From: Allosphingosinicella sp.
GTDB lineage: Bacteria > Pseudomonadota > Alphaproteobacteria > Sphingomonadales > Sphingomonadaceae
DNA: 64,000 nt
NCBI GenBank assembly: GCA_036398895.1
Contig: DASWOC010000026.1
Coordinates: 62,293 to 126,292 of the forward strand
Reading direction: 5' to 3'
Shown here: positions 803 to 4,382 of the stretch, piece after piece
Layout: each line of letters begins with the position of its first letter
Numbering within the stretch: position 1 is the stretch's first letter
The notes under the pieces: model-generated
What the model was told of the DNA's origin: nothing
The model's database searches: none
The model's input: only the letters and a program-made list of their open reading frames with translations
Made by a program: the position numbers and the translations under genes

Positions 803-938
803 GATGCTTCAGCTTCCGCAACGCCTCGGCCTCGATCTGCCGGATGTGTTCCCTCGTCACCGAGCACTGCTGCTGACCTCTTTTGAGCGTATGGTCAGGA
901 TTCATCCCGATCCCAAAGCCCATGCATTGAATCTCCTC
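803..938 (-). repeat. Degenerate copy A of the rpoD 3' end (region 4)
   Basis: 803-922 vs rpoD 2378-2497: 93/120 identical, ungapped. Translates [42 protein letters not shown] vs [42 protein letters not shown]. Confidence 0.92.
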
Positions 939-998
939 AACATCGTCACCGTTCGCACGTGTGCGTCTGCACCGGCCTGCCTCAGATCGGCCGTTCAG

Positions 999-1359
999 AT
1001 GCCGCAACCATATCCCACCAAGAATCGAGGCTTTATCATGCGCCTGCTCTGCGCCACGGGGGGTTCGATTGGTGTACCGGCGGGAGAAGAGCTCCCGCAC
1101 ACAGGCTCGCCTTGCAATCATCGCGGCGGCCGTTTCTGCGGCGACAGGAGTTTCGCCGGCATGGGCTGCCGCATTGGCGCTCTCCATCGGACTGGTCCTG
1201 GCGCTGGAGGCGGTCAACTCCGCGCTGGAATATATGATCGATCACCTTCATCCGGAGATCGCGGGTGAGATCGGCTGCGCGAAGGATGCAGCCACCGGCG
1301 CGGTCCCGATCGCAAGCACCGCCGCAGTCGTGTGGGGGCTGCAATGCTGTGGGCCTTAG
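999..1359 (+). pseudogene. dgkA: Diacylglycerol kinase (DgkA family) pseudogene with two frameshifts
   Basis: Three frames join into a DgkA-like protein: MPQPYPTKNRGFIMRLLCATG | VRLVYRREKSSRTQARL...ALEAVNSALEYMIDHLHPEIAGEIGCAKDAATGAVPIAS | VGAAMLWALA. Shifts lie at the G6 run 1058-1063 and at the gtgt near 1330-1333. Confidence 0.8.
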
Positions 1360-1382
1360 CCCAAGCTGAAGGCGGGAAGGCC

Positions 1383-1500
1383 CTACTGGTACAGGAACAA
1401 CCGCTCTTTAGAGACCGGCTAGGGTGTTTCAGATTCCGCAGCGCCTTTGCCTCGATCTGCCTGATCCGCTCCCTGGCCTCCGAAAGCCTACTGCGCCACC
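1383..1500 (-). repeat. Degenerate copy B of the rpoD 3' end including the CAG-TAG terminus
   Basis: 1413-1482 vs rpoD 2368-2437: 57/70 identical. ctactg at 1383 matches the rpoD end at 2337 after a 1-nt deletion. Translates [24 protein letters not shown]. Confidence 0.92.
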
Positions 1501-1515
1501 TATGGATCCGCGCCC

Positions 1516-1716
1516 TCAATAGCGCCCGAGATGTGCGCAACTGCTCTGGTCGAGGTACAGCGACACACCTCGCGCGATCGCGGGAATTTGGTCGCCGACC
1601 TTGCAGCGCAGCTGGTGTGCCGGGATCGTCAGTTGGCCAGCTCTCCCATCCGCTGCCTTAGCAACGACAACCACATCCGGTGCATAGGGAAGCACGGAGG
1701 ATTTGGGGCCATCCAC
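1516..1716 (-). CDS. Hypothetical 66-aa protein between rpoD-end copies C and B
   Basis: GTG start 2 nt past the end of copy C. The ORF fills the spacer between the copies. No family recognised. Confidence 0.3.
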   Translation of the reverse strand: MDGPKSSVLPYAPDVVVVAKAADGRAGQLTIPAHQLRCKVGDQIPAIARGVSLYLDQSSCAHLGRY

Positions 1717-1717
1717 G

Positions 1718-1810
1718 TAACTGAGCCAAGAAACTCCGCATCTTCCGCGACCGGCTAGAACGCTTCAGCTTCCGCGGCGTCTTCGCCTCGATCTGTGGGG
1801 ACGCGCTCCT
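1718..1810 (-). repeat. Degenerate copy C of the rpoD 3' end
   Basis: 1718-1797 vs rpoD 2337-2416: 66/80 identical, ungapped, including an exact run ctccgcatcttccgcgaccggct. Confidence 0.92.
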
Positions 1811-2002
1811 GCAGACCTCTGCGACTACTGCTCCGAGAAAGGAAGGGGATGTCCTGTTCTCCGAGTACGTGCTTGTAGTGACTCAGAAGCCCCCAAAGCT
1901 GGTTTCTAAGCTCGTTGATGTGCTCGAAACCCGATGACCCACGGGACGCCTCACGACACGCCATGTCGGCTTGGTGACATAACACGTAGAGCGTGTCGCC
2001 TT

Positions 2003-2036
2003 GAATAAGAACGCCCGGGAAGCGCCGCCCGGGGTG
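2003..2036 (-). terminator. Probable intrinsic terminator downstream of rpoD and its small cotranscribed gene
   Basis: On the minus strand, a CCCGGG-N8-CCCGGG stem is followed by the U-rich tail cgttcttattc. Confidence 0.5.
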
Positions 2037-2041
2037 CCGGA

Positions 2042-2092
2042 TTACGGCCGCATTGGTCTCATCAGATAGTATGACCGGATCAAAGGCTTCAG
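2042..2092 (-). repeat. Tentative, highly eroded copy D of the rpoD 3' end
   Basis: 2073-2092 vs 2368-2387: 16/20 identical. On the same diagonal (offset 295) a TAA at 2042-2044 coincides with the rpoD TAG. Overall only about 28/51, which is borderline. Confidence 0.35.
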
Positions 2093-2103
2093 TTGCACCA
2101 GGG

Positions 2104-2331
2104 TCACGTATCTTCGGTTTTCGAAAGAACGATCCAAAAGAACAGGAGGAACACCGCGAAGGCTGACCCCGAACTCAACCACCAGAGAAGCGAGTCGACC
2201 TGAGCGTTCCGCGACAGCCACATGATCGGCAGTTCGACCGCTATGAGGGCCGCCGTCAGCGCGCAGCCCTGCCACCTGATTGGATGAAAGCCGAACCCGA
2301 AATGGCGGCGGAACCAAGGGTCTTCGGACAT
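2104..2331 (-). CDS. Small membrane protein (75 aa)
   Basis: ATG 5 nt after the rpoD stop. WFRRHFGFGFHPIRWQG N-terminus followed by two hydrophobic segments. Confidence 0.7.
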   Translation of the reverse strand: MSEDPWFRRHFGFGFHPIRWQGCALTAALIAVELPIMWLSRNAQVDSLLWWLSSGSAFAVFLLFFWIVLSKTEDT

Positions 2332-2336
2332 GCGCT

Positions 2337-4382
<2,046 letters not shown>

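Follow-up and report, generated by a model that had tools for sequence, protein, structure and literature searches.

Nobusato et al. (2000, Gene 259:99) and Furuta et al. (2010, PMC2853133) have described a class of genomic events known as insertion with long target duplication, and cases in rRNA genes have also been reported (Lim et al. 2012, PMC3457768). In these events, DNA without mobility genes is accompanied by repeats of 46–423 bp, which in many cases extend across the target gene's stop codon (PMC2853133). The locus studied here, at the 3' end of the rpoD gene of an Allosphingosinicella sp., follows this pattern, and the idea that it lacks any precedent is not supported. As in the published cases, inserts are shorter than 20 kb and lack mobility genes, the direct repeats measure tens to hundreds of bp, the repeats often reach across the stop codon and keep the target gene whole, and restriction-modification (R-M) systems are found among the cargo. 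Genomes without the insert have the published repeats as single copies. Insertions of this class have direct repeats of more than 30 bp, and those in our DNA measure 76–127 nt as blastn alignments (80–165 bases overall); their inserts are below 20 kb without a mobility gene, and the units here measure 0.3–6.3 kb and carry none in the five lineages with gene calls. R-M cargo, which belongs to the published screen and not to the mechanism, is present in two related lineages (L253 and L254) and was not found in the window, the stretch of 64,000 nucleotides that was analysed. An integrase island has a tyrosine or serine recombinase in or beside the element, and none was seen in the stretches around rpoD.

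The locus differs from the published cases in that the gene targeted, sigma-70, is essential, insertions at the site have been serial, giving an array of three displaced ends, the cargo (small ORFs, dgkA, toxin-antitoxin pairs, a histidine kinase) is mostly of other kinds than R-M and the two repeats appear to be different functional alleles. The pattern itself is already known; what is new is the repeatedly used insertion site at the rpoD end. The end of an essential, extremely conserved gene can, on this reading, admit foreign genes repeatedly where no integrase is to be seen, and the scars that are left record the order of the insertion events.

Tandem accretion at gene 3' ends is familiar from tRNA and tmRNA islands and, in Streptococcus thermophilus, from ICESt1/ICESt3 and the cis-mobilisable elements at fda, all of which require a tyrosine integrase and a fixed core. 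The rpoD locus resembles them in that co-oriented repeats of a gene 3' end separate the insertions and the newest element restores the intact gene, but no integrase is seen and the boundaries vary. In Rhs/CdiA loci, new units made of a gene tip and a small neighbour gene are acquired through recombination within the gene's conserved part, and the displaced, 5'-truncated tips pile up downstream, each with its small partner gene; the tip is a variable, selected toxin and the partner an immunity gene. The pile-up of displaced tips is shared with rpoD, whereas the RpoD tip is invariant at the protein level and its neighbours are unrelated cargo. In homology-facilitated or Campbell-type integration one conserved anchor admits foreign DNA without a dedicated recombinase, and the non-homologous joints are variable; the outcome described is usually that recipient DNA is replaced or deleted. 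Homology-facilitated illegitimate recombination and Campbell-type single-crossover integration were reportedly treated in 2002 by de Vries and Wackernagel and by Prudhomme and co-workers. The single anchor and the variable joints would recur at rpoD, where by contrast the end of the anchor is duplicated.

Copies of the rpoD 3' end and the genes between them

The segment of rpoD that is repeated downstream of the gene corresponds to its last ~165 nt (2337–2501). The features of the region are listed below from rpoD to the left edge of the window, with positions inside rpoD counted back from the stop codon.

2337..4382, minus strand: rpoD (sigma-70), 681 aa, intact, with Sigma70 r1–r4 Pfam domains (JGI gene call, ORF list)
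2104..2331, minus strand: 75-aa ORF with two hydrophobic segments, starting 5 nt past the rpoD stop (ORF list, JGI call)
2014..2033, minus strand: G+C-rich, terminator-like hairpin with a T-rich tail (consensus match of a kind no more numerous than in shuffled sequence)
1720..1810, minus strand: copy C, displaced rpoD end, −78 to −2, secure part 1720–1795, stop mutated
1516..1716, minus strand: 66-aa ORF, truncated homologue of a 109-aa gene that L258 has directly behind its resident rpoD stop
1383..1501, minus strand: copy B, displaced rpoD end, −119 to 0, TAG kept, 1-nt deletion
961..1359, plus strand: dgkA (diacylglycerol kinase), tightly fitted into the space from copy B to copy A, convergent with rpoD (JGI gene call)
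798..938, minus strand: copy A, displaced fragment, −165 to −37, last 36 nt missing
1..688, minus strand: AraC-family regulator, continuing past the left window edge

When the last 400 nt of rpoD were used as a blastn query against the whole 64-kb window, exactly three further matches were obtained, all co-oriented and all downstream of rpoD, in agreement with the original prediction: copy A (798–923, 100/127 identical, 79%, E 8e-24), copy B (91/120 identical, 76%, E 5e-19) and copy C (1720–1795, 66/76 identical, 87%, E 3e-18, with weak similarity onward to ~1810). The next-best match elsewhere in the 64 kb had an E value of 0.07. Copy A was also matched by tblastn (70% over 47 aa) and by Pfam Sigma70_r4, and a direct-repeat scan of the whole window gave A, B and C as the sole local family apart from the Walker motifs of ABC transporters. 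Both B and C had been said to reach the rpoD stop codon; this holds for copy B, which keeps TAG behind its 1-nt deletion, but not for copy C, where TAG has become TTA. All three copies are frameshifted, truncated pseudogene pieces, unlike any functional rpoD. They differ in both their 5' and 3' limits, and their start-to-start spacings (620, 336 and 619 nt) have a semi-regular look. The mutual similarity of the spacers does not exceed that of shuffled controls, and the cargo ends have no common sequence. The repeated segment is too conserved for A, B and C to be placed phylogenetically by their sequence; A and B are about equidistant from every alphaproteobacterial rpoD, and C is nearest to the resident end. 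A recombination breakpoint was sought in the resident rpoD by sliding-window identity to five relatives, which gave no clear drop at the 3' end.

For the 75-aa protein encoded next to rpoD no homologue and no Pfam family were found; the GC3 of its ORF is 0.75 and exceeds GC1 and GC2. Rfam, promoter and terminator scans returned the hairpin at 2014..2033, a candidate end of the rpoD and 75-aa transcript, and nothing else. The 66-aa ORF after copy C, noted in the original prediction, proved to be a real gene remnant, with 67% BLASTP identity (E 1e-32) to the 109-aa protein of L258, a comparison for which DNA alignment and tblastx were also run; its GC3 is below GC1, consistent with decay. The dgkA ORF had been called a pseudogene, which is not established, as its match to Pfam DAGK_prokar (E 5.5e-21) spans profile positions 3–99 of 102; judging by this match, the gene is possibly intact. 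Beyond the left edge of the window, AraC is followed by a convergent S9/S15 peptidase. G+C content is 57–62% in window 1–2400 and 64–70% in the flank. The DUF6975 gene, located 0.2–1.4 kb after rpoD in 7 other Sphingomonadales, is 9.1 kb away here; downstream of rpoD, this clade has a hypervariable interval.

Displaced rpoD ends in related lineages

Six other close lineages were examined, defined by an RpoD 89–91% identical or by the AraC neighbour in common; a displaced rpoD end with different cargo was found in 4 of them, and in one Hyphomicrobiaceae MAG. Another 16 Sphingomonadales loci lack the pattern; there, as in L252 and L256/L257, the rpoD end is single-copy. All instances come from metagenome assemblies or MAGs and none from an isolate genome. 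In L165 a histidine kinase lies between the rpoD end and the displaced end, and the latter abuts the AraC-peptidase pair as in the window. The cargo of L255 is ParE/PaaA2, and in L258 the 109-aa gene directly follows the resident rpoD stop and precedes the displaced end. L253 and L254 carry a 6.3-kb island, whose largest genes form a type II R-M system (two MTases and REase_II with E 5e-132); behind the island the last 312 nt are present once more, as an intact copy. The Hyphomicrobiaceae MAG (L019) has a DUF4160/DUF2442 pair, named from sequence without a family scan, and small ORFs are also among the cargo of rpoD-end units. Repeats in the relatives measure 86–312 nt, and lineages vary from one to three in their number of displaced ends. 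Cargo of the addiction type, namely R-M and toxin-antitoxin pairs, is seen in the relatives.

Copy C with its 66-aa ORF corresponds to the resident rpoD end of L258 with its 109-aa gene, and this homology means that whole units of rpoD end and neighbour have been displaced by later insertions. Furthermore, copy B and the displaced end of L258 match in position and have a small deletion at the same site, and the two are probably orthologous. Together with the relatives in which other cargo lies between intact rpoD and a displaced end, this bears out the proposal that units of 'rpoD end + downstream gene' have accumulated here. Identical, fixed spacers in relatives had been named as an observation that would speak against that proposal; the opposite was found, as the cargo differs. 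No genome with the matching neighbourhood of rpoD and cargo turned up as a donor of the 75-aa gene, of dgkA, of the kinase or of the toxin-antitoxin pairs, and a strict empty site, with rpoD directly abutting AraC, was not found in any relative. None of eighty more distant metagenomic AraC loci lies near rpoD, and none of the other close AraC-peptidase loci (L164, L166, L247–L250) adjoins it.

Across the window and the relatives, the 5' limits of the copies fall at −59, −66, −78, −90, −105, −119, −146, −162/−165 and −312, with a cluster of breakpoints around −60 to −78, and the segment from −59 to −37 is common to all copies. Two independent displaced copies contain an insert of 42–44 nt at −66; these inserts are not repeated elsewhere, and only that of L165 has a significant hairpin fold. 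The breakpoint cluster and the inserts at −66 could be a pointer to a site-specific step.

Over 312 nt, the resident and displaced ends differ at 19 positions in L253 and 45 in L254, all synonymous (0/17 and 0/38 differing codons are nonsynonymous), and serine codons switch between the TCN and AGY families from one end to the other in L165, L255, L258, L253 and L254. Judging from these codon differences, resident and displaced ends are different functional alleles, which argues that the 'duplication' is donor-borne rather than copied from the target. As far as a point 50 nt into the second copy, L253 and L254 share 99.3% identity; past that point there are 47 synonymous-site differences and the downstream DNA is unrelated, which places a recombination breakpoint within the copy. 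At the protein level, all intact copies compared (those of the window, L253 and L254) agree in the last 104 residues of RpoD, and the window, L252, L256, L257 and L258 agree in the last 150; all nucleotide differences are synonymous. The suggestion that each event swaps the −35-recognition helix is not supported in the sense of a functional swap. A chimeric assembly join at the conserved rpoD end could imitate the all-synonymous divergence and the breakpoint of L253/L254, and synonymous differences could also come from ordinary core-gene recombination that replaced the resident rpoD allele later on.

Origin of the array

We think that the array probably arose through insertions that needed no recombinase and had homology within the conserved rpoD end as their anchor. 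The array would be a stack of scars from at least three DNA insertions at the rpoD 3' end in the lineage of the window. Each incoming piece would have carried its own copy of the rpoD end directly before one or a few genes, and would have joined the chromosome via homology with the highly conserved region-4 coding sequence, either as a circularised fragment through a single crossover, or through a double crossover with overlapping arms from a donor already holding the duplication, or through one homologous and one illegitimate joint. rpoD would thereby stay intact, and the earlier end, shortened at its 5' side, would be shifted downstream together with the gene beside it. The youngest unit is the present rpoD end with the 75-aa gene, followed, toward the oldest, by C with the remnant of the 109-aa gene, B with dgkA, and A with the AraC-peptidase pair. 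Long repeats would be lost again by recombination, so that short repeats or insertions held by addiction would survive and, after decay of the cargo, degenerate and non-recombinogenic fragments like those of the window would be left. The sequences show the copies and their order, the recurrence with other cargo, the displacement of a whole unit and the lack of a recombinase nearby; the route by homologous recombination and the stabilising effect of the cargo are inferred. The array in the window consists of old, decayed relics and is not an active capture machine; of the 'gene-capture locus' first suggested, serial insertion stands and active capture does not. Among the three mechanisms put forward at that time, Campbell-type homologous integration fits best, and an integrase in trans and reverse transcription are without support, because no recombinase or reverse transcriptase family is among the Pfam hits listed for genes around these loci, the boundaries vary, and integrases elsewhere target tRNA-Met.

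An unlikely alternative is that the target was duplicated in situ, by insertion at staggered breaks ~80–300 nt apart followed by fill-in, in which case both copies would be native and identical at birth. Breakage has been proposed as a property common to the published cases (PMC2853133), which the locus resembles in its repeats spanning the stop codon, its intact rpoD and, in one relative, its type II R-M cargo. Nevertheless, neutral decay would not give ends that differ at synonymous sites only, as in L253/L254, nor the serine codon-family switches of L165, L255 and L258, and an extra allele-replacement step would be needed.

We regard as rather improbable an integrase acting in trans, whereby small integrase-less elements, similar to cis-mobilisable ones and each with an attP mimicking the rpoD end, would have formed a tandem series at an attB in region 4.2 before decaying. 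The block from −59 to −37, present in all co-oriented tandem copies, is compatible with a fixed crossover core, the breakpoints near −60 to −78 and the two inserts at −66 point the same way, and there are precedents for tandem accretion at tRNA genes and fda. However, for the five lineages with gene calls, the Pfam hits listed for up to 10 kb on each side of rpoD include no integrase, transposase or reverse transcriptase family (L019 is without such annotation); there is no recombinase in the 20 kb annotated around the window's rpoD, and no integrase among the families matched by more than one of 138 ORFs in the ~4.5 kb downstream of rpoD at 64 alphaproteobacterial loci. The integrases near rpoD in other Alphaproteobacteria, L084 and L085, adjoin the tRNA-Met(CAT) gene downstream of it and target this tRNA gene and not rpoD. 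Moreover, the 5' boundaries are spread from −59 to −312, and the cargo ends lack a common sequence.

Carriers were also sought. For a phage or virus with an attP made of the rpoD end, GenBank phages and IMG/VR gave full sigma genes or host flank only, two Klebsiella 'phage' records containing the host DNA tsaD-rpsU-dnaG-rpoD-mug-tRNA-Met. For a plasmid carrier, full-length rpoD was found on chromids and megaplasmids only, and no rpoD fragment was found near the one Novosphingobium plasmid match inspected; no phage or plasmid record contained an isolated rpoD-end fragment. An integron cassette array, which would have an IntI integrase with attI and cassettes closed by attC sites, was rejected as well, there being no integrase, no common sequence at the spacer ends and no Rfam match.

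A single ancient tandem duplication of 'rpoD end + flank', with spacers later decayed and replaced, would agree with the semi-regular spacings of the copies. It is very improbable because the spacers are mutually unrelated, and the differing limits of the copies, the variation of cargo and copy number among relatives, and the identity of C's neighbour with the gene after the resident rpoD stop of L258 stand against it too.

Reverse transcription, which would insert cDNA, truncated at its 5' end, from transcripts that run across the rpoD end into the next gene, suits the variable 5' ends and the common 3' part of B, C and several relatives' copies and is still extremely unlikely. No reverse transcriptase is annotated near any of the loci, and Rfam gave no match in window 1–2600, be it to a group II intron, a retron or anything else. 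The displaced end abuts conserved downstream genes with the cargo between it and rpoD, the reverse of the arrangement expected if a cDNA of 'truncated end + gene' were inserted behind the stop codon, and dgkA is on the opposite strand. Copies made by a retro-element (group II intron, retron, DGR) were rejected, there being no reverse transcriptase family within 10 kb on each side of the window's rpoD and no Rfam match in 1–2600.

That the region is an assembly artefact or a chimera at a conserved gene, named in the original prediction as an outcome that would undo it, is hardly credible given the evidence from contigs, the level at which assemblies were compared. Every instance is metagenomic, and at 85% likeness the copies draw in rpoD ends from many species, seen as depth spikes in run X4. 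Nevertheless, the copies do not resemble a functional rpoD, and the longest exact match between any two of them is 23 nt. An independent Logan contig, 4,530 nt long, spans window 1–2382 with zero differences at an even depth of 11.7, so that two assemblers agree, and two biocrust runs contain exact pieces of 24–280, 919–1131 and 1056–1329, among which the A/dgkA junction is crossed. L253 and L254 come from independent samples and have an identical 5' junction. As regards an excised circular form and an empty attB, no joints in the array (1–2337) were seen in assembler contigs.

An extension of homology-anchored insertion, which we consider doubtful, is that the rpoD terminus of the Allosphingosinicella-like clade is a true recombinase-independent landing pad for cassettes with a portable rpoD-end homology arm. 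Such cassettes could be inserted by host recombination into any rpoD-bearing genome, would lie 2–20 nt past the stop and be co-transcribed with sigma-70, and would be kept in place by addiction or defence cargo. In a stronger version, the breakpoint cluster and the −66 inserts may mark an undescribed specific nuclease or a hairpin-dependent step. The clade offers a natural series, with one to three displaced ends, young and old, and with R-M, toxin-antitoxin and other cargo, which together with the allele difference between repeats makes a donor-borne homology arm directly testable. Fragments of the rpoD 3' end are also a trap for marker-gene analyses and metagenome binning.

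Decayed rpoD ends beside the intact gene

When the last 400 nt of rpoD were compared with the whole window by blastn, three extra matches were found, all in one orientation and all 3' of rpoD, confirming the three co-oriented degenerate copies of the original prediction (E 8e-24 to 3e-18). The best remaining match had an E of 0.07, and no further local direct-repeat families were found in the 64 kb.

rpoD and its 3'-end copies in the window (limits within rpoD are nt counted back from its stop codon; blastn)
2337-4382, minus strand: rpoD, downstream of dnaG
1720-1795, same orientation as rpoD: copy C, rpoD -78 to -2, 87% identical, E 3e-18
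1383-1501, same orientation as rpoD: copy B, rpoD -119 to 0, 76% identical, E 5e-19
798-923, same orientation as rpoD: copy A, rpoD -165 to -37, 79% identical, E 8e-24

In a multiple alignment, copy A lacks the final 36 nt of rpoD, copy B retains the TAG with a 1-nt deletion and copy C has lost the stop codon. Read in the sense of rpoD, a 75-aa ORF starts 5 nt past the stop, and a terminator-like hairpin follows it. Copy C comes next, then a 66-aa ORF and copy B; a convergent dgkA, with a Pfam match to nearly the whole domain, separates copy B from copy A, and after copy A lies an AraC regulator extending beyond the window edge. The G+C content is 57–62% in window 1-2400, compared with 64–70% in the flank. 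Mutual similarity of the four spacers was not above that of shuffled controls, and the array is therefore not a simple duplication. Copy C and the resident end (that of intact rpoD) remain weakly similar for about 20 nt 3' of the stop, where the ORFs behind them begin (1698-1719 versus 2317-2338; 80% over 98 nt in all), so that the duplicated stretch may have extended a little past the end of the gene.

The window belongs to a 92,945-nt JGI soil-metagenome contig, and every instance of the pattern, relatives included, comes from metagenome assemblies. An assembly artefact is argued against by assembled contigs: window 1-2382 is reproduced with zero differences and at even depth in a Logan contig assembled independently from a sample of the same type, and two biocrust runs contain exact pieces of the region, one spanning the junction of copy A and dgkA. 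Moreover, no two copies share an exact match of more than 23 nt, too little to mislead an assembler, and the copies are frameshifted fragments which no working rpoD would contain.

Serial displacement in a variable interval

The DUF6975 gene lies 0.2–1.4 kb past rpoD in seven other Sphingomonadales, compared with 9.1 kb in the window contig. Between genomes of the closest relatives (RpoD 89–93% identical; Allosphingosinicella where named) the first few kb 3' of rpoD are wholly different, and carry defence or addiction genes (type II R-M, ParE/PaaA2, SIR2-STAND, PDC-S31/DUF2971 and HATPase_c_3). Resumption of the backbone is marked by a conserved aspartic-protease gene in two relatives (L255 and L258) and in the window contig. 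This interval is a hot spot.

Defence-type genes (L-numbers denote loci from relatives or databases)
L258:8760-11630, after rpoD: SIR2-STAND
L256:11375-12175, after rpoD: PDC-S31/DUF2971
L252:6107-7708, after rpoD: HATPase_c_3
L164:465-1400, adjoining an AraC-peptidase pair: CAP12-PCTIR TIR protein

Several loci repeat the arrangement of the window, with cargo genes between the resident end and a displaced end further downstream.

Loci with a displaced rpoD end
L165, Logan contig found via the AraC homologue: cargo, HWE histidine kinase starting 2 nt past the stop; displaced end, -146 to -72, 44-nt insert, -66 to stop, 18 nt ahead of the same AraC-peptidase pair as in the window
L255, RpoD 91%: cargo, uncalled ORF of about 150 aa 17 nt past the stop, then PaaA2/ParE; displaced end, -162 to -60, 42-nt insert, -59 to -4, plus a fainter, older piece
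L258, RpoD 90%: cargo, 109-aa gene starting 10 nt past the stop; displaced end, -90 to -2
L253 and L254, one species in two samples: cargo, 6.26-kb island with an R-M system; displaced end, intact last 312 nt
L019, Hyphomicrobiaceae MAG: cargo, frameshifted DUF4160/DUF2442 pair, named by eye; displaced end, -105 to about -5

No displaced copy was found in L252, in L256/L257 or in the other 16 Sphingomonadales loci. The pattern is common in one clade, with at least one occurrence elsewhere, and rare overall. In an isolate genome, Afipia sp. OHSU_II-C1, a 29-nt rpoD piece (L045:12843-12871; -178 to -150, 28/29 identical) lies 14 nt past the stop of the gene after rpoD, DJ-1/PfpI-type by eye, and may be a very short remnant of a comparable event. 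In E. coli, 5,484 matches to the final 300 nt of enterobacterial rpoD were found in 5,426 complete genomes (at most three per genome), which implies an extra copy or fragment in about 1% of them.

The serial insertion of rpoD ends with their neighbours, as originally proposed, is borne out by L258 and by the varied cargo of the relatives, which do not share fixed spacers. The 66-aa ORF that follows copy C matches the 109-aa gene of L258 over its C-terminal two thirds at 67% identity (E 1e-32), and in L258 this gene lies directly 3' of the resident rpoD stop. The rpoD fragment that follows it there is the positional counterpart of copy B, and both carry a small deletion at one common site (AAGATGCGG). 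A whole unit of rpoD end and neighbour has thus been displaced. In the simplest history, the ancestral order would have been rpoD, 109-aa gene, end B; in the window lineage a later insertion would have brought the present end and the 75-aa gene, moving end C and the 109-aa gene downstream, where they would have decayed. In both L165 and the window the most distal rpoD end adjoins the shared AraC-peptidase pair, as predicted if insertions consistently occur at the functional end.

Route of entry

Displaced ends differ throughout in their 5' limits (-59, -66, -78, -90, -105, -119, -146, -162/-165 and -312). The displaced end is a different functional allele from the resident one, not its decayed twin: the two differ at 19 of 312 nt in L253 and at 45 of 312 nt in L254, all synonymously, and serine codons have switched between TCN and AGY in L165, L255, L258, L253 and L254. 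Switches of this kind build up in genes under selection in separate lineages. From dnaG through the island, and for 50 nt of the second copy, L253 and L254 share 99.3% identity; 47 synonymous differences and then unrelated DNA follow, which points to a recombination breakpoint inside that copy, although a chimeric join at the conserved rpoD end could mimic this result.

Differing limits, different alleles and a breakpoint inside a copy are consistent with homologous recombination as the way in, with the conserved rpoD end as anchor and the donor as source of the new end, and we favour this route among the mechanisms originally offered. A donor carrying rpoD, island and rpoD-end fragment could transfer all of it, and with it the duplication, to a recipient lacking the arrangement, for which a double crossover with two arms overlapping in the target would suffice; this would explain the frequency of the pattern within one clade. 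A donor neighbourhood was not found for any cargo.

A site-specific component in the insertion is possible, as breakpoints cluster around -60 to -78 and two independent displaced ends each carry an unrelated insert of 42–44 nt (L165:1302-1346 and L255:10282-10323) at -66, where the codons for QIEA meet those for KALRKL; the insert of L165 is a near-perfect, strong hairpin (z -2.6). In-situ duplication of the target fits less well, given that the two ends are different functional alleles, unless the resident allele was replaced afterwards. The integrase and reverse transcriptase routes found no support: no integrase, transposase or reverse transcriptase was detected by Pfam, and no tRNA gene, within 10 kb on each side of the window rpoD, and no integrase family was present among those listed, each matched by more than one of the 138 ORFs scanned up to about 4.5 kb 3' of rpoD in 64 of the 80 alphaproteobacterial loci compared.

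The exchange of the -35 recognition helix that was originally proposed makes no difference to the protein, since all intact copies compared (window, L253 and L254) have the same last 104 RpoD residues, and the window, L252, L256, L257 and L258 have the same last 150. In L253 and L254 the second copy lies within an intact 152-aa ORF (L253:15162-15620, L254:11564-12022), in which 49 unrelated residues precede the last 103 of RpoD (region 4), identical to those of the resident protein; a stand-alone sigma region-4 protein might be produced from it.

Known systems and possible carriers

Rhs/CdiA loci contain displaced 'orphan' tips, and tRNA or fda sites undergo tandem accretion; the rpoD array is functionally like both but lacks their defining features. 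Nor does it represent a new kind of capture machine. The pattern has been described as 'insertion with long target duplication': genes, first R-M systems and later others, lie between direct repeats of 46–423 bp and are not accompanied by mobility genes; other strains have a single copy of the repeat, which often includes the start or stop of the target gene and so leaves that gene intact (PMC2853133). Related cases occur in rRNA genes (PMC3457768), and the mechanism is an open question in that literature. The rpoD array is a new, serially used case of this class, from which it differs in its target (the 3' end of sigma-70, an essential gene), in the serial use of a single site, leaving a relic array, in cargo mostly other than R-M and in evidence for an allelic difference between the two repeats.

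No phage, provirus or plasmid with an rpoD-end fragment as attachment site was found; the searches gave only full sigma genes or host flank. Two alphaproteobacterial proviruses have a convergent tyrosine integrase 280–340 nt past rpoD, with the provirus behind it, and a tRNA-Met(CAT) in between, about 100–140 bp past rpoD (L084:2160-2235 and L085:4231-4305), which is evidently the integrase target. This arrangement matches the Klebsiella rpoD-mug-tRNA-Met with P2-like prophages. Two Klebsiella prophages were deposited in GenBank as complete phage genomes (MK422453.1, 1-6200, and MK416018.1) with about 6 kb of the host's chromosome attached (tsaD, rpsU, dnaG, rpoD, mug and tRNA-Met); their prophage limits are too wide. 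Full-length rpoD is found on several Novosphingobium megaplasmids, including Novosphingobium resinovorum pSA2 (NZ_CP017077.1), one of them typed as conjugative, and plasmid-borne rpoD could supply the chromosome with foreign rpoD ends through recombination.
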